Assembly (NCBI GenBank): GCA_964367085.1
Contig: CAYIWL010000003.1
Coordinates: 1-36,002, forward strand
Direction of reading: 5' to 3'
DNA: 36,002 nt
Origin: Candidatus Woesearchaeota archaeon
Lineage (GTDB): Archaea > Nanobdellota > Nanobdellia > SCGC-AAA011-G17 > ARS1403
Each line of letters begins with the position of its first letter. The stretch's first letter is position 1. A program made the translations under genes and the position numbers. The notes beneath the pieces are model-generated. The model worked only from the letters and a program-made list of their open reading frames with translations. It did no database searches and was not told where the DNA came from. Below, piece after piece: positions 121 through 23,746 of this stretch.

Positions 121-140
121 AGATGCAGCAAAGGATATAA

Positions 141-1229
141 GAACTCAACAAGGAAAAATCAAGTGATAATTATAAATCTCTGGATAAATGCCCATACTGC
201 CAGGGAAAAATAGTTAAACGTGGATTAAGAAAAAAGAAATACGAACAAGTGCAGATTTATTTCTGCCAAAACTGCAGCAAACGATTCATTTCAGCAATAA
301 CAAAAAATAAAACATACCCTCTTAAAATTATTATAGATTCTTTAATTTTATATAATAAATTAAATCCAATAGAATTAATTCCAGATATAATACAAGAAAA
401 ATATGGAATATCATTAAAGCCAAGAACAATCTCAAATTGGCTGAAAGAATATGAAAAATATATTCCATTTCTAAGAATGAGAGAATTTGCATTTAAAAAA
501 TATTCAAAAAAAGAAATAATTGAAGAATCAAAATTATTTCATCAGCAGATTTATAATTTCAAATACAACAGAGCAAAATTAAATATAATCCTAGAAGAGG
601 ATTTCAAACACCATCGTTTTAAACCATTAAAAGAATTTCTAGAATTAGCTATAGCCGAATGTCCCAATCATATTTTTCAAAGCTCGGAAAATAGGGCTTC
701 AGATCTGAAAGGAAAATTCAATTTAGAGGGAGTAAGAATAATTCCAAAAGATAATTTTATAGTAAAAACAACCAATTTCATAACTCAAGCAGTTAGCAAT
801 AATAAAGCAAGGCATGAAACTTTGCAGGATTTTATGATAGCAAATGATTCAACAACAATAGTAGCAGAGCTCCCTGTTTTGTTGGACAGTGAGGACATTA
901 GGCATTACAAGCACGAGCTTAATTTTGAAATCCCAATATCCCTCCAAGATGGGGAATACATCACAGGTCATATTGATTTAGTGCAAGTCAGAAATGGCTC
1001 AATTTATATTCTTGACTATAAACCGTCAGCCAAGAAACAAAAACCAATTGAACAATTGACAATTTACGCACTAGCTTTGGCAAGATTGACTGGATTAAGA
1101 TTATATCATTTTAAGTGTGCATGGTTTGATGAAAGAAATTATTATGAATTCTTTCCTTTGCATGTAGTCTATAAAATAAAAAACAAAAAAAGAATTCCAA
1201 GAGAGCAAACAAAGCTAAATTTAATATAA
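141..1229 (+). CDS. Zn-ribbon + HTH + C-terminal PD-(D/E)xK (RecB/Cas4-like) nuclease; start uncertain, possibly inactivated by a stop at 138-140
   Basis: Frame is open upstream of the called GTG (249) to 141 and gives CPYC-x(21)-CQNC (IS1/InsA-like ribbon). HTH-like IQEKYGISLKPRTISNWLKEY follows. Nuclease motifs: AELP, GHIDLV, ILDYKP, EQLTIYALAL. Confidence 0.8.
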   Translation, partial: ELNKEKSSDNYKSLDKCPYCQGKIVKRGLRKKKYEQVQIYFCQNCSKRFISAITKNKTYPLKIIIDSLILYNKLNPIELIPDIIQEKYGISLKPRTISNWLKEYEKYIPFLRMREFAFKKYSKKEIIEESKLFHQQIYNFKYNRAKLNIILEEDFKHHRFKPLKEFLELAIAECPNHIFQSSENRASDLKGKFNLEGVRIIPKDNFIVKTTNFITQAVSNNKARHETLQDFMIANDSTTIVAELPVLLDSEDIRHYKHELNFEIPISLQDGEYITGHIDLVQVRNGSIYILDYKPSAKKQKPIEQLTIYALALARLTGLRLYHFKCAWFDERNYYEFFPLHVVYKIKNKKRIPREQTKLNLI

Positions 1230-1307
1230 AACATCTCGCTTTTCTTGCAAGAAAGATCAATCTCAGCAGGTTACATGGATTCGTCAGAATTATTTCATGA
1301 AAATCAG

Positions 1308-1411
1308 TGATGCAGCTTAATGATGAAATCAAGGCTCAAAATGAAGCAATAAAGGCATTAGAAAAAGAAGTCCAACAATTACGGCAGGAAAACAATCAGC
1401 AACTAAAATAA
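1308..1411 (+). pseudogene. Orphan C-terminal coiled-coil remnant (VMQLNDEIKAQNEAIKALEKEVQQLRQENNQQLK*)
   Basis: Hand translation; shares a QLN-led heptad pattern with 2686-2817 and resembles the tail of peptidase-S74 chaperone-type fibre proteins. Confidence 0.4.
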
Positions 1412-1525
1412 ACTAATATAAATAAAAACTGCTATCATTATAATTAACACAACCAGCAAAAAAGCCGCATAATTCATCGAGCTAAATACTGAAAAAGCAT
1501 TCCTATTTTTAATTTCTTCTCTCAT
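1403..1525 (-). CDS. 40-aa single-TM membrane peptide
   Basis: MREEIKNRNAFSVFSSMNYAAFLLVVLIIMIAVFIYISLF*; GGAG upstream; 2 nt after the previous stop. Confidence 0.55.
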   Translation of the reverse strand: MREEIKNRNAFSVFSSMNYAAFLLVVLIIMIAVFIYISLF

Positions 1526-1527
1526 TT

Positions 1528-1707
1528 TCATCTCCTTTCTAATTTATTTAATCTATCAGCCAATAAACTAATCCTTGACAACGCAATTGCATCAATTGCA
1601 GCTAAAAAAGAAACTGCAATTATAATGAAATACTGAAATTTTTCCTCGCCCAAAAACAACCCGATAAACGCTATTATCGTCATAACACTGGCAATAAATG
1701 CAATCAC
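1528..1707 (-). CDS. 59-aa two-TM membrane protein
   Basis: GTG start; VIAFIASVMTIIAFIGLFLGEEKFQYFIIIAVSFLAAIDAIALSRISLLADRLNKLERR*; TATA-like run at about 1731-1740. Confidence 0.55.
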   Translation of the reverse strand: MIAFIASVMTIIAFIGLFLGEEKFQYFIIIAVSFLAAIDAIALSRISLLADRLNKLERR

Positions 1708-1771
1708 GTCAAAGATTAATTTTATTTAATCTTTATATATTCCCTATCTATTTAAGGCTTTCCTCTCAACT

Positions 1772-1837
1772 TCGGCATCAAACCCTTTTAGAAAAAGGTC
1801 TTGACCCCAAGGGGGAGTTCAAAAGAACCGTAGGTTA
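1772..1837. repeat. Spacer block A (hairpin-rich, ~65 bp), copy 1; copy 2 at 5474-5538
   Basis: tcggcatcaaacccttttagaaaaaggtcttgacccc...aaaagaaccgtaggtta is near-identical at both sites. Confidence 0.9.
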
Positions 1838-1972
1838 ACACGGCTCAAGGCCTTTCATTTCATTCAACGTCGGCATCGGCACAACAAGGAAACAGCACCA
1901 GAAGCCTAAATACAGCAAAATTCCTCCTTTCCAGCCAGATTTTCCAGGTTTTTCCAGTAATATCAGTCATCT
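1832..1972. repeat. Spacer block B/D (NVGIGTT-coding motif through first 15-bp motif); related copies at 2636-2672, 4244-4288, 5670-5850
   Basis: 1832-1858 = 2636-2662 (27 bp); 1864-1888 = 5689-5713 (25 bp); 2649-2672 = 5670-5693 (24 bp); 1889-1972 aligns with 5767-5850. Confidence 0.9.
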
Positions 1973-2041
1973 CAATTACTAGTAATTTCAGTCATTTTTC
2001 TTAGTAATCTTAGTCAGTTCAAGCATTAGTAATTTTAGTCA
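1955..2041. repeat. Four tandem 15-bp YAGTAATNTYAGTCA motifs (further copies at 4274, 4753, 4778, 5833)
   Basis: Copies start at 1955, 1980, 2002, 2027; 1956-1994 is identical to 4754-4792. Confidence 0.9.
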
Positions 2042-2058
2042 GCTAGTTAAAAAATTTG

Positions 2059-2076
2059 AACAGCAAGTTTTTTAAA
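2059..2076 (+). promoter_or_regulatory. Conserved BRE/TATA promoter (AACARCAA-rk-TTTTTAAA); also at 4913-4933, 5927-5947, 6624-6644, 7092-7112
   Basis: Same motif ends 22-24 nt before the start codon of five TA loci, the archaeal leaderless spacing. Confidence 0.75.
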
Positions 2077-2100
2077 GAGGTTTTAATTATAAGGACTGAT

Positions 2101-2289
2101 ATGACAAACTCAAATATAACTTTAAACACAATATACAAAGATTTGGAATTGATAAAAACCAAGGTTATTAACATAGAGGAACATATTTTAGAAAGAGAAT
2201 TATCAGAAGATGACAAAGAAGCAATAGATCAGGCTTTGGAAGAAGAAAAACAGGGAAAACTTTTAACAAAGAACCGAGTCTTTGACTAG
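2101..2289 (+). CDS. Antitoxin (acidic, RelB-like partner)
   Basis: Start moved to ATG 2101 (24 nt after TATA); ELSEDDKEAIDQALEEEKQGKLLT; overlaps the RelE gene. Confidence 0.75.
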   Translation: MTNSNITLNTIYKDLELIKTKVINIEEHILERELSEDDKEAIDQALEEEKQGKLLTKNRVFD

Positions 2290-2548
2290 AATGTTCCCCG
2301 CAGAATTCTCTACAAAAGTTGCTAAATATATTAAAAAATTAGACAAGATTACAAAATCGAGAATAGAAAACAGAATTAATGAACTTGAACAAGATCCATT
2401 TCCAAAAGAAGTTGAAAGAGTAAAAGGTTACAAGGGAGAAAAAGTTTTCAGGGTAAGGGTTGGAGACCAAAGAATTCTTTATATTGTAAGGTATAATCCA
2501 AATAAACTTATCATAACTAAGGTTGATAAAAGACCAAGAGTTTACTAA
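2282..2548 (+). CDS. relE: RelE/ParE family toxin
   Basis: KYIKKLDK...FRVRVGDQRILY...VDKRPRVY. Confidence 0.85.
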   Translation: MTRMFPAEFSTKVAKYIKKLDKITKSRIENRINELEQDPFPKEVERVKGYKGEKVFRVRVGDQRILYIVRYNPNKLIITKVDKRPRVY

Positions 2549-2550
2549 AA

Positions 2551-2817
2551 ATGCAACATCGGCATCTTCCTTTCTTTAAAAAAGAAAGCAAGTCCAAAGA
2601 AAAGATAGAAAATATCGGCAAGGGAATCAAGGCGCAGGTTAACACGGCTCAAGGCCTTTCATATCGCTCAACTTCGGAACAGGCAATCTACATCATCCAA
2701 CTTAATGAAGCAGTTCAAAATCATCAGAACGAGATGAAACTGCAAAAACAAGCATCAGCCGTTCAGCAGCAGGAACTGGCATTATTGAAAGCCCACATCT
2801 CAGTATCCGAAGCCTGA
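2551..2817 (+). pseudogene. Mosaic of spacer blocks ending in coiled-coil remnant (AIYIIQLNEAVQNHQNEMKLQKQ...SEA*)
   Basis: ORF is assembled from repeated blocks B and C; unlikely to be an intact gene. Confidence 0.5.
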
Positions 2818-2832
2818 AACCCCTCAAAATCC
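2707..2832. repeat. Spacer block C, 126-bp direct repeat, copy 1
   Basis: Identical by eye to 4598-4723. Confidence 0.95.
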
Positions 2833-2931
2833 AGCATTTTTCATAAAGAATCTGTTACATAATTTAGTTAAAAATCCACTACATGAAATTCTCACCAATA
2901 ATTATTTAAACGTAAATAGTTAACAAAGATT

Positions 2932-3375
2932 ATGGCATCTAATGATGAAACAAGGAAAATAATAAAAAACTGGTTGGAACAAGCAGAATCAGATTTGAAA
3001 AGTGCAGAATATAATCTAAATGGAAGAAAATTAGATGTAGCTTCATATCTCTGCCAGCAAGCAGCAGAAAAAGCATTAAAAGCATTTTGTATAAAAATTC
3101 ACAACAAACTATGGAAAACCCATGATTTAATAAAGTTGGCAGAATTAGTCAATGCACCGGAAAACATAATAGAAATTTGTAATGTGTTAAGTCCTATTTA
3201 TACTGAAGATCGTTATCCTGATTATTCAGATATCATCCCAGCTAAAAAATTTGAAGAAAAAGAAGTAAGTGATTTTCTAAACAAAGCCAAGGAGGTAGTC
3301 AAATGGACAAAAGAAAGTCTGGAATCATCAAAAAACTCAAAGAATTCAAAAAAGAAAACAAAATCAAAAAAATGA
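2932..3375 (+). CDS. HEPN domain protein
   Basis: WLEQAESDLKSA, CQQAAEKALKA, KTHDL, RYPD. Confidence 0.9.
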   Translation: MASNDETRKIIKNWLEQAESDLKSAEYNLNGRKLDVASYLCQQAAEKALKAFCIKIHNKLWKTHDLIKLAELVNAPENIIEICNVLSPIYTEDRYPDYSDIIPAKKFEEKEVSDFLNKAKEVVKWTKESLESSKNSKNSKKKTKSKK

Positions 3376-3611
3376 TTTTTTTCGGAAGTAGAATGACTAA
3401 TAATTATAATAAATACAGTGACATTGATCTTGTAGTAGTCTCTCCAAAATTTAAAAAATTAAAATCATTTCAACGCCCAGCAATGCTAAGATTAAAATGG
3501 AATATGAAGTATCCGGTGGATCTTCTTTGTTACACTCCAGAAGAATTTGAAAGAAGAAGAAAAATACCCTCGATAGTAAGAGAAGCTGCCGAAACAGGGA
3601 TTGAAATATAA
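3303..3611 (+). CDS. Minimal nucleotidyltransferase (MNT) antitoxin
   Basis: FFGSR...SDIDLVVVS...VDLLCYTPEEF. Confidence 0.9.
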   Translation: MDKRKSGIIKKLKEFKKENKIKKMIFFGSRMTNNYNKYSDIDLVVVSPKFKKLKSFQRPAMLRLKWNMKYPVDLLCYTPEEFERRRKIPSIVREAAETGIEI

Positions 3612-3718
3612 TAAATCCATCAATCTCACTTTTCTCAAAAGCTTTTCTTAGAACCTTTTAAGAAAAAGTATTCATGGAAAAAAATAAAGCTGGATAAAAT
3701 TAGAAAATGAAAGACAGT

Positions 3719-3952
3719 TTAAACTTCTCTTCTCAATTCCTCATAATCTTCTCTGCTTAACTTTATCTGTTTAAGAATTTCTCTCAGCAAACTCACGCCT
3801 ATCTCTTCATTTCCATGAACAGGAACAACGGTTCTTCTTCCATCAGTGTGCCGATATCTTACATGACTTCCTTTTCCATAAGTTTTCTCAAAACCAAGTT
3901 TTTCTAAGATCTTACACAGTTTTTTACCAGAAATAGGAACAAGTTTTGTCAT
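3719..3952 (-). CDS. hicA: HicA family toxin
   Basis: LEKLGF...KGSHVRYRHTDGRRTVVPVH...LREILKQ. Confidence 0.9.
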   Translation of the reverse strand: MTKLVPISGKKLCKILEKLGFEKTYGKGSHVRYRHTDGRRTVVPVHGNEEIGVSLLREILKQIKLSREDYEELRREV

Positions 3953-4173
3953 CTTGCAATCTGTAATTGCTGTACACCAACAAATCTCATTGGGCTAATT
4001 TCTTCTTTATCCGCTTCCAAACAAACTTCAATAGCTTCTTTAATCCTGTCTAACACTTGTGCAACAGTTTTACCTTGAGTAAAGCATCCTTGAATGTCAG
4101 GCACACTAGCTATGTACCATCCATCCTCTCCTTGTTCTATCAAAACAGTAAAATTATATATTTGCCTTTCCAT
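3949..4173 (-). CDS. hicB: HicB family antitoxin
   Basis: YIASVPDIQGCFTQGKT...IKEAIE; start moved to ATG 4173 (TATA about 25 nt upstream). Confidence 0.9.
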   Translation of the reverse strand: MERQIYNFTVLIEQGEDGWYIASVPDIQGCFTQGKTVAQVLDRIKEAIEVCLEADKEEISPMRFVGVQQLQIAR

Positions 4174-4288
4174 ATAAAAATAATTTGTTAATCTATCTTT
4201 ATATACCTTTCGACAACAAGCCACAGCTAACCATCGTATATAAGCATTAGAAGCCAGATTTTCCGGGTTTTTCTAGTAATTTCAGTCA

Positions 4289-4378
4289 GGTTATGACATA
4301 AGAATGGTTTACGAAATTGATGATGATAACAAAGAAATAGTCGTTGTAGCTGTTGGCTCTCACAAAGTCTATGAGTGA
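4289..4378 (+). pseudogene. 3' fragment of a RelE/YafQ-like toxin (GYDIRMVYEIDDDNKEIVVVAVGSHKVYE*)
   Basis: Hand translation; begins right after the 15-bp motif at 4274-4288, with an in-frame stop at 4277. Confidence 0.7.
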
Positions 4379-4527
4379 ATTTTAAGCTCCCAAGTTTTTA
4401 CCGCTTTTATTTTGGCTAGATCGCTTTCCTTTATAGCTTCCATCATTTCCCTATTTCTCAATATCCCAACCTCTTCTAAAAGCGCCTCATATTCTTCTCT
4501 TGGAATCTGAATCATTTCTTGTCTCAT
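4369..4527 (-). CDS. 52-aa antitoxin-like protein (Phd/YefM C-terminal-like)
   Basis: MRQEMIQIPREEYEALLEEVGILRNREMMEAIKESD...; GAGG and TATA upstream. Confidence 0.7.
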   Translation of the reverse strand: MRQEMIQIPREEYEALLEEVGILRNREMMEAIKESDLAKIKAVKTWELKIHS

Positions 4528-4597
4528 AAAAAACCTCAAGTAAATCTTCTTTAAATAATTATCGGTTAGTTCGCACTAGCGAATCAAGTCCAAAAGA

Positions 4598-4723
4598 GAA
4601 GCAGTTCAAAATCATCAGAACGAGATGAAACTGCAAAAACAAGCATCAGCCGTTCAGCAGCAGGAACTGGCATTATTGAAAGCCCACATCTCAGTATCCG
4701 AAGCCTGAAACCCCTCAAAATCC
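4598..4723. repeat. Spacer block C, copy 2
   Basis: Identical to 2707-2832. Confidence 0.95.
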
Positions 4724-4955
4724 TCAAAAACAGCCAAGATCCAAGAAAATCCTAGTAATATCAGTCATCTCAATTACTAGTAATTTCAGTCAGCTAGCCA
4801 ACAAATTCTACTAACTTTTCGTGAACGTTTTCCTAAAAGGTTCTGCTAGTAATATTCTATTGTTTTATTAGTAAAACTAATTACACTTAAAAAAAATTAA
4901 ATAGTAACAACGAAAAACAACAAGGTTTTTAAATATAGCATCCTCCAATACTAAA

Positions 4956-5198
4956 GTGAGAATAACAATTCCGCCTTATGCACAAGAAAGAATAAAAAGA
5001 TACAATCTAACAAAAAACATAGTTGAAGAGGCAATAAGGAATCCAGATGAAATTGTCAAAGGTTATGAAGGAAGATTGATAGCTCATAAGTTGCTTGATA
5101 AACACGTACTAAGGATTGTTTATCTGAAAACTGAAGAAGAAATAAAAGTAATTACGGTTTACCCTGCAAAAAAAGAGCGTTATTGGAGGAAAAAATGA
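4956..5198 (+). CDS. DUF4258-like toxin
   Basis: YAQERIKRYNL...EEAIRNPD...LRIVY...KVITVYP. Confidence 0.8.
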   Translation: MRITIPPYAQERIKRYNLTKNIVEEAIRNPDEIVKGYEGRLIAHKLLDKHVLRIVYLKTEEEIKVITVYPAKKERYWRKK

Positions 5199-5413
5199 AA
5201 GCGTTTTATGACAAGGAAACGAATGTATTATTAATAAGAATAAGAGATAATAAGCCAGAATATGGAGAAGATATCGGCCAAGGGGTTGTAGTGCATTTTG
5301 ATAAGAATGAAAACCCTGTAGAGATAGAAATTCTTGATGCCAAAAAATATCTGGCAAGCTGGTTGGAACAAGCACTAGAAATAGCTCCGAAACAAAAGTT
5401 AGTGGCTGCTTAA
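5195..5413 (+). CDS. DUF2283 family antitoxin
   Basis: MKAFYDKETNVLLIRI...VVVHFDKNENPVEIEILDA; ATGA overlap with the toxin stop. Confidence 0.85.
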   Translation: MKAFYDKETNVLLIRIRDNKPEYGEDIGQGVVVHFDKNENPVEIEILDAKKYLASWLEQALEIAPKQKLVAA

Positions 5414-5473
5414 AACAGATTAATGGCAATAAAAACCGCTTTGGTTCTTATCATCTCCAGCTTACAAGCAACA

Positions 5474-5538
5474 TCGGCATCAAACCCTTTTAGAAAAAGG
5501 TCTTGACCCCAAAGGGGAGTCAAAAGAACCGTAGGTTA
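5474..5538. repeat. Spacer block A, copy 2
   Basis: Matches 1772-1837. Confidence 0.9.
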
Positions 5539-5970
5539 TTTTACGGCAACGTCTCAAGTCTCCAGCATCTCCACATAGAAATAATTCCAATATTGAGATA
5601 AATATTAGGTGTAGATGCGTCTCAACCTTGCCTTTGGCATCAAGGCTCAAGATTCAGGTTAGCAGGTTATCAAGGCCTTTCATATCGCTCAACGTCGGCA
5701 TCGGCACAACAAGTTCGGTAGTTAAAAGAAAGGCTAAAAGAAAGTTCAAAGACGGTAAAGGCACAGGAAACAGCATTAGAAGCCTCAAACACAGCAAAAT
5801 CCCCATTTCAAGCCAATATTCCACTAAATTTTTAGTAATCTCAGTCATCTACAATAACATCAACAGCCAATCACAATAATTCTTATTAACTTCAAAAACA
5901 ACCATCAACTATGAAGAAAAAAGTAAAAAAACAACAAGGTTTTTAAACTTGTCTTCTTATAAAAAACAAT

Positions 5971-6249
5971 ATGTCAAAAGAACTATTATTAACAGTTGTT
6001 GTAAAGGAAGAAGAAAAAGGATACTCCGTTCTATGTCCGGAATTAAATGTAGCCAGTCAAGGAGAAACCTTTGAAGAATCTATTTCAAACATAAAAGAAG
6101 CTACTGAATTATATATAGAGAGTGCAAAACAATTAGGTATTCTGGATGAAATTCTAGACCAGCTTGGAATTACAAATCAAGATTTTAATAAAGGGCAGAT
6201 AATTCCTAAAGTTATTACAGCAAATGTTCCAATAAGGATCGCAGCTTAA
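5971..6249 (+). CDS. hicB: HicB family antitoxin
   Basis: YSVLCPELNVASQGETFEESISNIKEATELYIE. Confidence 0.9.
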   Translation: MSKELLLTVVVKEEEKGYSVLCPELNVASQGETFEESISNIKEATELYIESAKQLGILDEILDQLGITNQDFNKGQIIPKVITANVPIRIAA

Positions 6250-6251
6250 AG

Positions 6252-6473
6252 ATGAAACTGCCGGTTATTTCTGCAGATAAAATACTCAAGCTTCTAAAGA
6301 AGGAAGGGTTTGAAATCACAAGACAGAAAGGCTCACATATATCTCTTCACAGAAAATTAGAAGGGGGAAGCATAATTTTGGTTGTTGTCCCGAGAAAAAG
6401 GGAAATCAAAAAAGGCACTTTATTAAGCATTATTAAACAATCAAAGATGTCAAGGAGAAGAATTTCTAAGTAA
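6252..6473 (+). CDS. hicA: HicA family toxin (C-terminus probably altered by a 1-nt insertion)
   Basis: LKKEGFEITRQKGSHISL...GTLLSIIKQ; deleting one G near 6454 restores MSREEFLSKIG*. Confidence 0.85.
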   Translation: MKLPVISADKILKLLKKEGFEITRQKGSHISLHRKLEGGSIILVVVPRKREIKKGTLLSIIKQSKMSRRRISK

Positions 6474-6667
6474 GATTGGTTAGCCTATCAAAAAACACTG
6501 CAGCAGCTAAAACAATCATCCGCCCATAGCCCCAATTCCCAAAAATAATTTAAAAATCAGCAGTATGAGTTTTTTTAAAAATTCGTTATATAAATTTTAA
6601 AGAATCAAATACACAAAAAGTAAAAAAACAACAAAGTTTTTAAACTTGTTTCTATCAAATATTTATT

Positions 6668-6865
6668 ATGAAAACCGTAACTTTAAATGTCATAAATAGC
6701 AACCTTAAAAAATTGTACAACGAAGTTGAGTTCATAAAAAACATCCTCTCAGAAGAATATGAGCTGAGCAGTTGGGCAAAAAATGAATTATCAGAAGCAA
6801 GAAAAATTCCAGATTCTAAGCTAATAAGCCATGATGAGGCTAAGAGGCGCATTCTCCAAAAATGA
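6668..6865 (+). CDS. Antitoxin (small, RelE partner)
   Basis: YELSSWAKNELSEAR...LISHDEAKRRIL; ATGA overlap with RelE. Confidence 0.75.
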   Translation: MKTVTLNVINSNLKKLYNEVEFIKNILSEEYELSSWAKNELSEARKIPDSKLISHDEAKRRILQK

Positions 6866-7068
6866 GTTATGCTGTAAAATGGAATGATAATCCCTTAAAA
6901 CATCTTGAGAAACTACCCAAAGAAATTTCTTTAAGAGTCTTGAAAAAATTAGACAAAGTTGCTGAAGATCCTTTTAGATATCTAGAGCATTACGAAGGTG
7001 CGGACGTTTATAAGTTGAGGATAGGAGACTACAGAATGCTTATTGATGTTGACTTCACAACTAAATAA
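6862..7068 (+). pseudogene. relE: RelE family toxin, C-terminally truncated
   Basis: YKLRIGDYRMLIDVD then stop; lacks the final strand and GHRxxVY seen in the paralog at 23495-23746. Confidence 0.75.
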
Positions 7069-7134
7069 TTAAAAATCAGCGATGTGAAACAAAAAACAGC
7101 AAGTTTTTTAAAGGTTAATCCAATAATAAATGAT

Positions 7135-7272
7135 ATGCCAGAAACAATAACAATTTCAAAACATGAATATGTAAGGCTAAAAAGAATTGAGGAAATAGAT
7201 CATAATCTAATAAGTCAGTTAGTCAGATCCTTGGAGGATATAAAAGCAGGAAGAATAAAGAGAGTAGTTTAG
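7135..7272 (+). CDS. Orphan 45-aa antitoxin
   Basis: MPETITISKHEYVRLKR...SLEDIKAGRIKRVV; ATG 22 nt after the conserved promoter. Confidence 0.75.
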   Translation: MPETITISKHEYVRLKRIEEIDHNLISQLVRSLEDIKAGRIKRVV

Positions 7273-7383
7273 ATGTTTTTCTTCAAAGCTTCCTTAACAT
7301 CATTCAAATGCGCTTGGTTCGATGAGAAAAATTACTTTGAATTCTTCCCCCTGCACATTGTTTATCAAAAGGCAGCTATTTAA
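7273..7383 (+). pseudogene. Remnant carrying the C-terminus of a paralog of the 141-1229 nuclease
   Basis: FKCAWFDEKNYFEFFPLHIVY (from 7303) vs FKCAWFDERNYYEFFPLHVVY (from 1110): 18/21 identical. Confidence 0.85.
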
Positions 7384-7459: not shown

Positions 7460-7723
7460 ATGCATACACTAAAAAATCTGCTAAAATCAAGCACAAGAAT
7501 TAAGATCTTGAACCTATTATTATTTTCAGATAGGCAATATCATCTAAGGGATATCTCAAGAAAAATAAAGAAAACACCGATATATGTTTCAAAAGAACTT
7601 GAAAATCTGAAAAAGATAAACCTAATAAAAAAAGATAGAATGGCTAACCTAACTCTCTATTCTATTAACAACAAGAGTAAAATCATAAGCGAACTAAGGA
7701 GTATATTTAAGAAATGCAAATAG
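7460..7723 (+). CDS. Stand-alone winged-HTH (ArsR-like) regulator
   Basis: STRIKILNLL...YHLRDISRKI...VSKELENL; palindrome ATACAATTGTAT at 7443-7454. Confidence 0.8.
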   Translation: MHTLKNLLKSSTRIKILNLLLFSDRQYHLRDISRKIKKTPIYVSKELENLKKINLIKKDRMANLTLYSINNKSKIISELRSIFKKCK

Positions 7724-9315
7724 AAAAAATCAAAGTAGGAATCTATGCATTGGTCATACTAATTATAGTTCAATCCTCATCTGCTTTCAATGGTACGGGC
7801 TCGTCTGGAGAGGAAACAAGATTCGCTCTAGGATATATAACAATAAACGCAACTGACGGGGATTCAAAAATGCAAGGATTTGGAGGGATAATTTCATACG
7901 TCCTTGCAGCTGAAGAAAGCTTCAAAGGGTGGCTATTGCAACTAGATTATAACTTCTTTGCTCCTGAACCAGTTGACTTAAACTCTCCTTTAAACAATTC
8001 ATACTTCAATTTCACTACTGATTTTGACTGGAGCAACACAACAGACACAGAAAGATTTGAAGTTTCATACTTATTTGAAATATGGAATGATACAGCGGCA
8101 ACAAGCACACATTTTGTAAATTATTCAATAACAGAGACAGCAAACACGACACAGACAACGCCTACGATAAACGGGGAAGGAGCATTTTATTGGAGGGTAG
8201 CAGCAAATGATTCAAGTAAAAACTCTTCATTCTCAGAGTTAAGAGTAATAACTATAGACACAACTCTCCCAGCAGCTTTCAATATAACTTCGCCGACAGA
8301 TGCCTCATCATCAACAGACACAACTCCGATATTGCAATGGGATGCTTCAACAGATACAAATTTAGATAATTATACCATTGAATTATCAACAGGAGCGGAT
8401 TTCTCGACGATAAGCCAGACAGAGGTTTCAAAAACAAATTCACTAGAAAACTGGTCTGCGCCGCTGGCTGTTAATACTTATTATTGGAGAATAAGCGCAG
8501 TGGACAAGGCAAACAACCAAAGGATGAGTGATAATAATCAGTCGTTCTCGGTTAAGGCCTCGCAGACAACGACAGTAACATCATCAGGAGCAGGAGGAAC
8601 ATCAGGGGGAGGAACAAAGCCATTCACATTGAACATACTTGCGCCAGAGGGGATTATATTAACAGCAAATGACGTAATCAAAGTTCCACTATTAGTAATA
8701 AATCCATCATCATTAAGAGTCAGAGGGATAAACCTAGCAGTCCGTTCAGACGAATCAAGTATAGCAGTTGAGCTTGACAGGACGTCAATCTCAGAAATTA
8801 ATCCAGGAACACAGGAAAAATTAACTCTAACAATAAACACTGGAGATCTGGCAATAGGTTCGTATGGAATTACAATTGACGCATCAGTTGAAACTCCTGT
8901 TTTCTCTGACTCGACGAGGATATTTGCAAATTTATTAGAAAGAAGTGAAGGAGAAGCAGAAGTGCTTGACAAAGTAGATTTCGCAAAGCAGCTCTTCCAA
9001 GGAAATCCTGAATGTCTTGATCTTTCAGAGTATATTGAGGAAGCAGAAGCAGCCCTCCAAGAAGGTAATTCGGCGACAGCACTGAGCTTGGCAGAGAATG
9101 CAATTGATGCATGCAATAAATTAATCGAGCAAAGATCGCAATTTGCGTCGTCGATAACAGCAGCAGCAACATTCATAGACCGGGCAAAAGAGCAGCTAAT
9201 GTCAAAAACACTTATAATTGTAGCATCAGAAATAATCGGATTGATTATAATCTTAGTAGCAGTCTACAAATACAGAAAATCAAAAAGGAAAAAATTAGTA
9301 AAGCCACATTCTTAA
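7714..9315 (+). CDS. Membrane-anchored surface glycoprotein with two FN3/Ig-like domains, a Gly/Thr linker and a CARDB-like domain
   Basis: Signal peptide; repeated YYWR(V/I)xAxD; many NxS/T sequons; C-terminal TM plus basic tail. Confidence 0.8.
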   Translation: MQIEKIKVGIYALVILIIVQSSSAFNGTGSSGEETRFALGYITINATDGDSKMQGFGGIISYVLAAEESFKGWLLQLDYNFFAPEPVDLNSPLNNSYFNFTTDFDWSNTTDTERFEVSYLFEIWNDTAATSTHFVNYSITETANTTQTTPTINGEGAFYWRVAANDSSKNSSFSELRVITIDTTLPAAFNITSPTDASSSTDTTPILQWDASTDTNLDNYTIELSTGADFSTISQTEVSKTNSLENWSAPLAVNTYYWRISAVDKANNQRMSDNNQSFSVKASQTTTVTSSGAGGTSGGGTKPFTLNILAPEGIILTANDVIKVPLLVINPSSLRVRGINLAVRSDESSIAVELDRTSISEINPGTQEKLTLTINTGDLAIGSYGITIDASVETPVFSDSTRIFANLLERSEGEAEVLDKVDFAKQLFQGNPECLDLSEYIEEAEAALQEGNSATALSLAENAIDACNKLIEQRSQFASSITAAATFIDRAKEQLMSKTLIIVASEIIGLIIILVAVYKYRKSKRKKLVKPHS

Positions 9316-10154: not shown

Positions 10155-10916
10155 TCACCAAACTTGGATATTCAGAATTACCTGTTCTAGACTTCCGTCT
10201 TTATCCAGGATTGCATCTCCTAAATTCACTCCGTAAACAGTTATGTCGGCAGGCGGTATCGTCTGGTCGCATTCATTTTTACTTAGCTTCCCAATTCTTC
10301 CTTTTACAAAGCAATAATTATTTTTCAGTTCACCATCACTATTTAATACGCTTATCTTAAACTGCCTGAACATCGGAAATTTATCTTCGAGCTTGCTAAT
10401 TTCCAATTCATCCAGTTTTCTTTCGCTGATGCCTTTAAACACAATCGGGTTACCTGCACCGATACCAAATTCTGGAGGATTTTCGCATTTCATTTCAGGA
10501 GTTACATCCCCTGGATCTGCAGGATCGGAATATCCCTCAATCTCGTTGTAAAAAACCCAAAAATTATCATCCTTATTAAATAATTTTATCTTCAACGCTC
10601 CAGAATACGCAGCAGGGTTTCCAGTTTCGGCATTAACAACTTTAAACTTGCTGGTTATATCGGGAATGTATTCATTCAGATTAAGATCATAAACCCCGCC
10701 GTTGTCGCAACTAAAGCTGAGCAAAACTTTATTCACACTCCATTCCACCTCATTGTGAAAACTTTCTTTGGCAAGATTAACAAGGACATCACCTTCAAAA
10801 CTCGGTTTATAATTTGGTTTTATGAAAGCGAGCAAGATTATTAAATAAGTCAAAAATATAGCAATGCTTACAACCCAGTCAATGTGCACATTTCCTCTTT
10901 TATTTTTGATTTTCAT
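10155..10916 (-). CDS. Prepilin-like protein (class III signal peptide)
   Basis: NKRG/NVHIDWVVSIAIFLTYLIILL. Confidence 0.75.
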   Translation of the reverse strand: MKIKNKRGNVHIDWVVSIAIFLTYLIILLAFIKPNYKPSFEGDVLVNLAKESFHNEVEWSVNKVLLSFSCDNGGVYDLNLNEYIPDITSKFKVVNAETGNPAAYSGALKIKLFNKDDNFWVFYNEIEGYSDPADPGDVTPEMKCENPPEFGIGAGNPIVFKGISERKLDELEISKLEDKFPMFRQFKISVLNSDGELKNNYCFVKGRIGKLSKNECDQTIPPADITVYGVNLGDAILDKDGSLEQVILNIQVW

Positions 10917-23494: not shown

Positions 23495-23746
23495 TCAGCT
23501 TTCATAAACATTCTTTCTGTGCCCTGCCTTCAAGATTATTAAAGTTTTAGTAGAATGATCAACATCAATTATTAATCTATAATCTCCAACTCTTAACTTA
23601 AATCCTTCCTTCTCTTCAAGATGCTCAAGAAAGTGAAAAGGATTTTCTTTGCATTGTTGGAGTTTATTCCAAATTCTTTCTTTATCTTTCTTATCTAGTT
23701 TATTCAAAAAATCAGTAGCTTTCTTATCAAATCTAAGCTCATACAT
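23495..23746 (-). CDS. relE: RelE family toxin
   Basis: FKLRVGDYRLII...GHRKNVYE. Confidence 0.9.
   Translation of the reverse strand: MYELRFDKKATDFLNKLDKKDKERIWNKLQQCKENPFHFLEHLEEKEGFKLRVGDYRLIIDVDHSTKTLIILKAGHRKNVYES

Follow-up and report, generated by a model that had tools for sequence, protein, structure and literature searches.

How do about eight toxin-antitoxin (TA) loci of unrelated families come to stand side by side in some 6.2 kb of an archaeal genome, parted by spacers that repeat one another? The question is posed by positions 1230-7383 of a stretch of 36,002 nucleotides (nt) from a Candidatus Woesearchaeota archaeon, which is referred to below as the window and is contig C3 of genome G000, a metagenome-assembled genome (MAG) of 855 kb in 72 contigs that is 84% complete. 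The best-named homologues of the window genes come from MAGs of Woesearchaeota and Nanoarchaeota. On its left, the array borders on the stop codon of a zinc-ribbon/PD-(D/E)XK nuclease gene; its right-hand end is a displaced copy of the 3′ end of that gene, so that the two bracket it. On balance, we lean towards a hypervariable cassette array that accretes and exchanges cassettes by recombination within conserved linkers made of gene ends, and that is not an integron. This reading draws on the identity of the linkers, on predicted promoters that accompany them, on cargo that differs between arrays, on a horizontal distribution and on an insertion or deletion that maps to linkers, all as read from the sequence.

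Origin of the linkers and anatomy of the array

The initial annotation had described the spacers as a shared kit of repeated blocks and had suggested an undescribed archaeal system for accumulating cassettes. A repeat search located the repeats where they had been placed, all in one orientation. The idea of a purpose-built kit did not hold up: by alignment, the spacers derive by deletion from a single unit some 450 nt long and are not dedicated recombination sites. This unit reads on the plus strand and comprises the 3′ part of a Peptidase_S74-type fibre gene (with a GNVGIG motif and a coiled-coil C-terminus), downstream direct repeats of 15 nt (15-mers), and a predicted promoter with a B recognition element (BRE) and a TATA box. 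The constant DNA is instead the decayed 3′ end of a fibre gene with its downstream region, plus the 3′ end of the nuclease gene.

Five window linkers align colinearly on one backbone and differ in their internal deletions. The backbone starts with CAAC(A/T/G)TCGGCATC, followed by a small hairpin, a second motif coding for GNVGIGT and the coiled-coil end; it then runs through a conserved pre-repeat region, one to four 15-mers spaced 22-25 nt apart and a variable stretch to the promoter. The hairpin is formed by CTTTCTT/AAGAAAG in some copies and by CCTTTT/AAAAGG in others (folding z-scores of -2.1 and -3.0). In translation, block B reads LNVGIGT, block C reads a coiled-coil C-terminus with SEQAIYIIQLNE and a stop codon, and blocks D14 and D4 continue the reading frame of a fibre fragment on contig C51 of the same genome. 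Blocks B and C match fibre-like genes of C51 (locus L001, 3374-4033 and 1-249) and an intact S74 fibre gene on contig C1 of G006, a genome of another genus. C51 carries, in one orientation, fibre-like genes (GNVGIGT, C-terminal coiled coil), a four-helix-bundle gene, a nuclease paralog, a HEPN-MNT pair and fibre remnants that run to the contig end. In G006, the intact fibre gene encodes 508 amino acids (aa) with a Peptidase_S74 domain, and the A′ motif, the pre-15-mer region and the promoter come after its stop codon; further downstream, cassettes alternate with remnants of the fibre 3′ end. The window holds six fibre remnants, and no intact S74 fibre gene, indeed no S74 match, was found in the G000 assembly at its 84% completeness.

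The system had also been thought to be specifically archaeal. The same duplication of a fibre 3′ end around a cassette occurs in an Omnitrophota MAG (L051), the two ends being 95-96% identical and differing by an internal deletion. In other lineages, the linker between cassettes was observed to be the 3′ end of a different type of gene, ending in SVIIKLG or GNVIIRLG before the stop codon (L040 95-190, 3645-3710 and 4535-4610; L067 340-500 and 1020-1175; L087 2705-2850), so that duplication of gene 3′ ends around cassettes may be general in these islands.

The repeated blocks of the window differ in their degree of conservation. The two copies of block C, at 2707-2832 and 4598-4723, agree in all 126 nt (100%); those of block A, at 1767-1823 and 5469-5525, are 93% identical, a match that BLAST extends to 71 nt at 95.8%; and two copies of block B (1829-1881, 2633-2685 and 5654-5706) are 85% and 68% identical to the reference copy. 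The 15-mer TAGTAATNTYAGTCA is present in eight copies with at most one mismatch, all on the plus strand (1955, 1980, 2002, 2027, 4274, 4753, 4778 and 5833), against 0.04 expected from shuffled sequence. When the array (1230-7383) was compared with the whole genome by BLAST, the blocks proved not to be dispersed: outside the array, they match C51 (four hits) and, apart from that, there is a weak ParE-like match at 23534-23647. Exact copies of the 15-mer and of the promoter are restricted to the array across all 72 contigs, near copies being 15-mers with one mismatch on C17 and C30 and one promoter with two mismatches on C2. A perfect 14-bp palindrome, AATTACTAGTAATT, was also observed between the first two 15-mers (1974-1987 and 4772-4785), and could be a candidate site for a dimeric DNA-binding protein.

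The promoter-like sequence AACARCAARKTTTTTAAA (18 nt) occurs five times in one orientation, at 2059, 4916, 5930, 6627 and 7095, with 0.00 copies expected from shuffles, and these near-identical copies precede five different operons. The distance from the BRE/TATA-like element to the start codon is 25, 23, 24, 24 and 23 nt (starts at 2101, 4956, 5971, 6668 and 7135, respectively); a TATA-to-start spacing of 23-25 nt fits leaderless archaeal transcripts. A second promoter type lies ahead of the HEPN-MNT operon, again as an inverted copy (4550-4569) ahead of the minus-strand open reading frame (ORF) at 4369-4539, and ahead of a pair of genes for DUF5678 and an aspartyl protease in metagenome locus L081. 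A third leader is common to the HicBA cassette of locus L078 and a different cassette of L081. By position, the predicted promoter is part of the linker rather than of the cargo.

The features of the array and its flanks, with families assigned to the ORFs by Pfam and NCBIfam profile searches, are as follows.

123..1229, plus: zinc-ribbon/PD-(D/E)XK nuclease gene, subtype LARLTGLRLYHFKCAW (Pfam PDDEXK_1, E 4.9e-7)
1230..1411, plus: linker F1, with an A′-type motif (AACATCTCGC and the palindrome TTTCTTGCAAGAAA) right after the nuclease stop codon; aligned with F3 and the C51 remnant
1307-1411, plus: remnant ORF of a coiled-coil tail that closes F1 (sequence reading)
1403..1707, minus: inverted cassette of two small hydrophobic ORFs (42 and 59 aa)
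1766..2056, plus: linker F2, with A 1767-1823, B 1829-1881, D14 1887-1910, D4 1933-1969 and four 15-mers 1955-2041
2059-2076, plus: promoter copy 1
2056-2289, plus: ORF of a putative antitoxin, ATG at 2101 (by position and size only)
2282-2548, plus: ParE/RelE toxin (Pfam ParE_toxin, E 1.6e-5)
2553..2832, plus: linker F3, with A′ GCAACATCGGCATC and hairpin 2553-2590 (fold z -2.1), B 2633-2685 and C 2707-2832; 53% identical to the C51 remnant over 49 aa (tblastn)
2891-2910, plus: second promoter type
2932-3375 and 3303-3611, plus: HEPN and MNT (Pfam HEPN, E 3.4e-28; NTP_transf_2, E 2.1e-13)
3719-3952 and 3949-4224, minus: HicA and HicB, inverted cassette (Pfam, E 4.6e-21 and 8.8e-9)
4252..4288, plus: linker F4, with D4 and one 15-mer
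about 4307-4378, plus: short remnant ending in VYEIDDDNKEIVVVAVGSHKVYE and a stop, RelE/ParE-like by eye (sequence reading only)
4369-4539, minus: 56-aa ORF, possible orphan antitoxin (by position and size only)
4598..4955, plus: linker F5, with C 4598-4723, two 15-mers 4753-4792, a 30-nt hairpin motif 4815-4844 and promoter copy 2 at 4916-4933
4956-5198 and 5183-5413, plus: DUF4258 and DUF2283 (Pfam, E 5.5e-8 and 9.8e-14)
5425..5950, plus: linker F6, with a fibre-derived lead-in 5425-5467, A 5469-5525, B 5654-5706, D14 5765-5788, D4 and a 15-mer 5811-5847, and promoter copy 3 at 5930-5947
5971-6249 and 6252-6473, plus: HicB and HicA (Pfam)
6615..7068, plus: region with promoter copy 4 (6627-6644) and a putative antitoxin (6668-6865, by position and size only)
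6862-7068, plus: shortened ParE, 68 aa (Pfam ParE_toxin, E 1.5e-6, profile positions 1-72 of 89)
7084-7272, plus: small ORF (in-frame ATG at 7135) with promoter copy 5 (7095-7112), no toxin partner
7273..7383, plus: displaced 3′ fragment of the PD-(D/E)XK nuclease gene, including FKCAWFDEKNYFEFFPLHIVY, 36 codons (tblastn and alignment)
7460-7723, plus: ArsR-type regulator of the right flank (Pfam HTH_5)
7714-9315, plus: surface-type protein of the right flank, 533 aa; like the regulator, syntenic on C30 of G003 and C24 of G001

The initial observation as such was confirmed. By Pfam, the predicted type II TA modules belong to ParE/RelE (one full and one shortened gene), HEPN/MNT, HicA/HicB twice and DUF4258/DUF2283. 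The putative antitoxins (2056-2289, 4369-4539, 6668-6865 and 7084-7272) and the two hydrophobic ORFs, regarded earlier as a membrane-peptide pair, matched no Pfam or NCBIfam family. Three cassettes are inverted, and C51 has a similar inverted pair of small membrane ORFs between linkers. In nucleotide identity, the HEPN-MNT cassette is 81.5% identical to its counterpart on C1 of G006, the inverted HicAB is 80% identical to L078 1343-1836, and HicBA (5971-6473) is 76.5% identical to L078 624-1154 and 78% to C12 of G008; the stretch 5425-5481 is 93% identical to L075 2014-2070, and the small ORF 7084-7272 is 47% identical to an ORF on C1 of G006. Elsewhere in the window, the weak match at 23534-23647 (minus strand), which is 69% identical to 6964-7077 in the shortened ParE region, suggests another RelE/ParE-type gene.

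Constant linkers and variable cargo in relatives

Relatives were compared through a DNA search of 41 genomes and through individual loci; G001 and G003 belong to the same genus (91% and 97% complete), and G036 and G077 to other families. The nuclease and 17-mer counts given below refer to 121 genomes of the order. In a metagenome scan, nine loci with two neighbouring 15-mers were detected.

The arrangement proposed initially, of variable cargo between constant and co-oriented linkers, recurs in five of these nine loci (L074, L075, L076, L078 and L081), which have at least two blocks in one orientation and 0.7-2.9 kb apart. The cargo between the blocks comprises MNT-HepT, inverted HicAB, YafQ/ParE, an unassigned ORF with ParE, HicBA, DUF5678 with an aspartyl protease, and HEPN-MNT. 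L074 matches the window block for block, as does L014, a locus of G006. The 15-mer blocks are 96.8% identical in L074, 93-94% in L075 and 90.8% in L076, and the shared cargo is 76-81% identical. In L078, homologues of the window HicAB and HicBA cassettes stand with a single 15-mer block between them, and the window has 1.7 kb more at this place, bounded by the 15-mers at 4274 and 5833; this places a cassette-sized insertion or deletion at linkers.

The chromosome downstream of the array is collinear on C30 of G003 and C24 of G001, and the region before the ArsR and surface-protein genes differs; at the orthologous site, G003 has a different array of 3 kb. Gene order in the array is accordingly not common to the relatives, in keeping with what had been expected of a cassette array. 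For two large conserved proteins encoded in the window, identity is 78-86% in the same-genus genomes, and 60% and 57-74% in G006. The HEPN protein is 79% identical in G006 and was not found, at E ≤ 1e-5, in G001, G003 or G008. As judged from these comparisons, at least one cassette has, together with its linker, a horizontal distribution.

Among public reads, the stretch is present in eight runs from two studies, in each case as short unitigs that break at the repeats. These unitigs cover the unique parts of cassettes and several junctions between repeat and unique DNA without differences (for example, 2338-2736, 2803-3651 and 4326-4627). Joints between linker blocks are many, with sides of just 20-34 nt at 90% likeness, and may be caused by other organisms or repeats. 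One unitig joint replaces a segment (4797 to 2894, with 30 other letters) in the same arrangement as in L081. In bins with 15-mer blocks, summed unitig depth is 4-8 times higher, depth not being equal to copy number. C51 ends within a linker (L001 1-72 and 5387-5496) and C30 ends in a 15-mer-like sequence (10239-10253), so the assembly probably breaks at further copies of the array, and the genome likely has more cassettes than were assembled.

The nuclease gene, its displaced 3′ ends and the 17-mer

At the right-hand end of the array, the end of the nuclease gene returns: the conserved stretch FKCAWFDE..FFPLH.VY, encoded at 1109-1163, recurs in 7273-7383, with 55-nt cores that are 75% identical. 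A full nuclease gene is accompanied by one fragment in the window, by two each in G003 (C30), G036 (C30) and G077 (C89), and by three in G007 (C36); on the latter four contigs, the cassettes (AbiEii/AbiEi-like, Fic, UPF0175 and ParE-like) each end in a 3′ fragment. The order in G003 is full nuclease gene, AbiEii and AbiEi-like genes, 3′ fragment, two nucleotidyltransferase-type ORFs, 3′ fragment, ArsR and surface protein. In G007, the full gene and the three fragments have between them two small ORFs, the AbiE pair that also occurs in G003, and a Fic gene, and in G008 a split nuclease gene directly adjoins the surface-protein gene. The fragments have a common sharp 3′ boundary, similarity being lost a few bases after CCNYTKCAT, and differ in their 5′ boundaries; the tails after the nuclease core measure 5-20 residues. 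The junction of AbiE cassette and fragment is found in three genera at different array positions.

Compared with the full gene of its own genome, the fragment core is 96% identical in G003, 91% in G036 and 75% in the window, and the G007 fragments are of a different subtype from the full gene. The 55-nt core of the first G003 fragment is 96% identical to the full gene of G003 versus 85% to the orthologous second fragment of G007, while in the 75 nt upstream of the core the order is reversed (81% versus 84%), both stretches being short. This pattern in G003 is suggestive of a displacement model.

C-terminal displacement is also, in our analysis, the closest known process; given the nuclease, a 17-mer described below and the 15-mers, a more specific mechanism is conceivable. 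According to Jackson et al. (2009; PMC2935791), rhs loci are strings of core fragments of variable length behind an intact gene, for which excision and re-insertion of circles by homologous recombination is proposed, and this model predicts that fragment cores match the attached core of the same genome. The loci studied here resemble those of rhs, cdiA and mafB as far as that text describes them, since an intact gene is followed by its own co-oriented 3′ fragments with variable core lengths and other genes between, a fragment core resembles the attached copy of the same genome in two relatives, though less so in the window, and the process proposed is homologous recombination through a circular intermediate with the older end shunted downstream. 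They differ in that the anchor genes encode a fibre and a nuclease rather than polymorphic toxins, the displaced tip carries no toxin domain (5-20 residues in the nuclease, a coiled coil in the fibre), the cargo consists of self-contained type II/IV TA operons with a linker that carries a promoter and 15-bp direct repeats, and the hosts are DPANN archaea and bacteria of candidate phyla.

Each slot of the array consists of a linker running from the previous stop codon (fibre 3′-end remnants, one to four 15-mers and a predicted BRE/TATA promoter), a TA operon with its start codon 23-25 nt past the TATA box, and the next linker. A crossover between direct repeats would loop out a linker together with a cassette; a single crossover with a homologous gene end elsewhere would re-insert the circle, with the older 3′ end shifted downstream; cargo would be swapped or deleted by double crossovers in the linkers on either side; and TA addiction would retain whatever lands in the array. 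The recombination events, the circles and any role of the nuclease are what we infer here. A dedicated, undescribed accumulation system, as first envisaged, is not required for most of the anatomy, which recombination between repeated gene ends, a process of a known kind, would explain.

The tiny genomes of DPANN archaea and candidate phyla keep hypervariable islands, and how genes enter these is poorly understood. On the present reading, recycled gene ends would supply both the homology for exchange and a ready-made predicted promoter, and the displacement logic of polymorphic-toxin loci would be extended to ordinary TA cargo and to archaea. The cassettes adjoin surface-fibre genes, which are likely relevant to host attachment. 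Also worth attention are a very widespread, uncharacterised nuclease family, a 17-mer that is conserved in DNA across domains, and the array of 15-bp repeats.

A dedicated system driven by the nuclease is the strongest rival, though we consider it doubtful. In such a system, the zinc-ribbon PD-(D/E)XK protein and a four-helix-bundle partner would cut a specific site, and break repair would copy units of linker and cassette; the candidates for this site are a 17-mer that occurs in fibre genes (GGCAACGTCGGCATCGG), the repeated 15-mers and the 3′ core of the nuclease gene itself. The size of the family speaks for it. There are 2062 homologues at E ≤ 1e-5, and the best 120 of them are 61-83% identical (the query's own record excepted), most of them on contigs a few kb long, and their records name Woese-, Nano-, Aenigm- and Pacearchaeota and a Parcubacteria bacterium as the source; taken together, the family is 60-80% identical across DPANN archaea and bacteria. 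A scan of genome contigs adds Omnitrophota (61-64%), Planctomycetia, Firestonebacteria, Berkelbacteria, Saccharibacteria and proteobacterial MAGs, a range that binning errors may inflate. The neighbours (24 of 40 loci were scanned) are typically co-oriented TA-type genes, with S74 or G2-type fibre genes nearby in four of the 24 loci, and a helical partner of about 150 aa is conserved directly upstream in 13 of 16 loci. In G005, the 15-mers precede the nuclease gene at a distance of about 30 nt.

In a Saccharibacteria MAG (L066, 24-14231), moreover, a giant fibre gene is split, beside GNVGIGTT modules, by an intein whose N and C halves enclose the nuclease gene and a small ORF; this is the position of a homing endonuclease. 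In the available text of PMC2677866, fractured genes are host genes split by intein halves with an endonuclease gene between. L066 is alike in placing the same nuclease family and a small partner between intein halves in a fibre gene, and the window differs, having no intein (no intein signature was found among its ORFs with Pfam) and a zinc-ribbon and RecB/Cas4-like PD-(D/E)XK nuclease, the family of that text being Vsr-like. Homing activity of the nuclease family is a candidate function only. Inteins were observed in other fibre genes, as a full intein in G001 (L083 442-4245) and as a C-half ORF before a fibre gene in G077 (L086 629-1099).

The 17-mer itself also speaks for nuclease-driven copying. 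It spells GNVGIG in 14 of 21 loci whose GC content ranges from 0.30 to 0.47, and in 21 of 24 cases in L066 alone; the remainder of these genes uses AT-rich codons, and the probability of this spelling from the codon usage of G000 is 1.5e-5. It occurs in 18 copies in 7 of the 121 genomes, 13 of the 18 on a contig with a nuclease gene or fragment, and in 5 of the 13 genomes with a long nuclease gene versus 2 of the 108 without; since related genomes are not independent, this association is overstated. Unrelated cassettes also have the 17-mer or a near copy at their stop codon or immediately behind it (window 1230 and 2555; C83 of G109; C89 of G077), and in other cases it follows 40-60 nt after the stop codon. 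A recognition site, a recombination hotspot and gene conversion would be indistinguishable here as accounts of it. A literature text search for 'GNVGIG' found no paper, supplements lying outside that search.

Against the nuclease-driven rival, which is built on sequence comparison, stands first the state of the window copy. The long form has a TAA at 138-140 and is open only from 249 to 1229 (326 aa, GTG start). No ATG, GTG or TTG lies between that stop codon and the GTG at 249, so translation probably misses the first CxxC and with it half of the zinc ribbon, and this copy may be inactive. It is 78% identical to the intact 376-aa paralog of C51, which has an N-terminal CxxC...CxxC zinc ribbon. 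The exact 17-mer is missing from 8 of the 13 genomes with the long gene, and the irregular 5′ boundaries and internal deletions of the fragments are unlike the products of a precise recombinase. An AlphaFold model of the nuclease (predicted local distance difference test score 85.4) weakly matched RecB/AddA/Cas4 nuclease domains (E 0.01), and the fold search gave no match to known homing endonucleases or transposases. A sequence search of PDB gave no match, the ESM Atlas returned its own PDDEXK_1 clusters only, and similarity of the N-terminus to the zinc-binding domain of IS1/IS1595 was below threshold (E 0.0086, 16.6 bits against a cut-off of 28 bits).

The long form is present in 13 of the 121 genomes, and a shorter homologue of about 225 aa in most. 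This PD-(D/E)XK protein (19621-20304 of C9 in G000), found once per genome in most of them, is about 30-39% identical to the C-terminal two thirds of the long form and looks like a housekeeping relative.

Several points weigh against homologous exchange in gene-end linkers as the explanation of the array. No recombination event or circular intermediate was observed among the short unitigs, and short-read assembly is unable to prove long-range order across repeats. With window cores just 75% identical, the window's own insertion is either old or not homologous; a recent homologous crossover is not visible there, and illegitimate or nuclease-driven insertion fits equally well. The nucleotide conservation of the 17-mer at right-hand cassette junctions, far beyond codon expectation, could reflect a specific site rather than generic homology. 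Linkers are not always better conserved than cargo, the 15-mer blocks of L078 being 75-79% and its cargo 76-80% identical. Finally, an extra nuclease fragment (E ≤ 0.01) was found in none of the 40 loci in which the gene lies on genome contigs of other species, so this type of array is not general.

Remaining explanations and known systems

A more far-reaching proposal, which we regard as improbable, is integrase-free gene capture across domains in DPANN archaea and Patescibacteria/Omnitrophota. Here a selfish module of four-helix-bundle protein and nuclease would target the 17-mer, repair would copy units of linker, promoter and cassette, and the 15-mers would form an operator or recognition array. 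If this were true, the fibre locus would be a site where TA and defence genes are exchanged between genomes and domains.

Vertical decay is similarly unlikely. On this account nothing was mobile: ancestral tandem fibre paralogs, each with repeats and a promoter behind it, decayed by deletion, and TA modules colonised the gaps independently and were kept by addiction. It would accommodate the fibre-like genes of C51, which stand in tandem and in one orientation with at least three copies or remnants, the internal repetitiveness of fibre genes, the age of most linker copies (66-96% identity) and the irregular deletions. It is at odds with the identity of block C between slots with unrelated flanks, and with a cassette and linker that are 79-97% identical in another genus and not found in two genomes of the same genus. 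It also leaves the AbiE cassette at different array positions in three genera, the different array of the same-genus G003 at the orthologous site, and the identical promoter kits ahead of different cargo on different contigs to be explained.

That the repeats caused chimeric joining of loci or strains during assembly is very unlikely. The source is a MAG of 72 contigs, C51 and C30 end in repeat-like DNA, and the public unitigs break at repeats; on the other side, unitigs of two studies cover the unique parts and several junctions without differences, and independent contigs of other assemblies contain the same kind of array.

The resemblance to chromosomal integrons, as the available text of 10.1101/2022.02.06.479319 presents them, lies in small co-oriented cassettes of similar size, many TA pairs (TA genes make up 10.5% of the cassette proteins with a functional prediction in archaeal integrons) and constant elements between cargo that varies among relatives, and attC-array integrons are reported there in archaeal MAGs including Nanoarchaeota. 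The earlier statement that neither an integrase nor an attC-like site is visible was upheld by profile searches, folding and Rfam. The tyrosine-recombinase family PF00589 occurs in the G000 assembly at 21595-22065 of C8 and 615-1085 of C21 only, and there is none on C3. Folded as single strands, the linkers gave -4.4 to -11.5 kcal/mol per 131 nt (z -1.3 to -2.4), with small hairpins after some stop codons (z -2.1 and -3.0), and an Rfam scan gave tRNAs only, no scan with an attC model having been made. In place of a single common Pc promoter, five cassettes each have their own predicted promoter, three cassettes are inverted, and the linkers are gene remnants of irregular length with direct repeats. 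An integron, or an integrase-less attC cluster with overlooked sites, is rejected because the contig carries no integrase and attC-like folds are lacking, and we give it hardly any credence.

Defence and TA islands formed by preferential attachment (PMC6393860, available text) are similar in the dense packing of unrelated TA families at a variable chromosomal site, and different in that the intergenic DNA of the array is a repeated and partly conserved kit that would supply promoters and homology for exchange; the available text of this review of archaeal TA systems does not describe such an architecture. With regard to insertion sequences and miniature inverted-repeat transposable elements, the inverted-repeat list of the window contained no paired ends bracketing cassettes. 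A diversity-generating retroelement, suggested by the four-helix-bundle gene and the duplicated 3′ ends, was rejected because the differences between the duplicates of L051 are not adenine-specific and no reverse transcriptase was seen near the arrays. A viral origin was likewise set aside: in IMG/VR, the nuclease had one marginal match (38% over 52 residues) and the 15-mer pair had none.

One further repeat belongs to linker F5. The 30-nt motif CTTTTCGTGAACGTTTTCCTAAAAGGTTCT at 4815-4844 can form a hairpin (GAACGTTTT...AAAAGGTTC), and a related inverted copy lies at 3650-3669. It was set aside as a recombination site because of its unrelated contexts: matches of 90-97% are present in at least ten genomes of the order (L023-L031), where they lie between genes, next to Alba, to HicB and to a small PD-(D/E)XK gene, and in two genomes within archease ORFs. 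From this distribution, the motif may be a small dispersed repeat.

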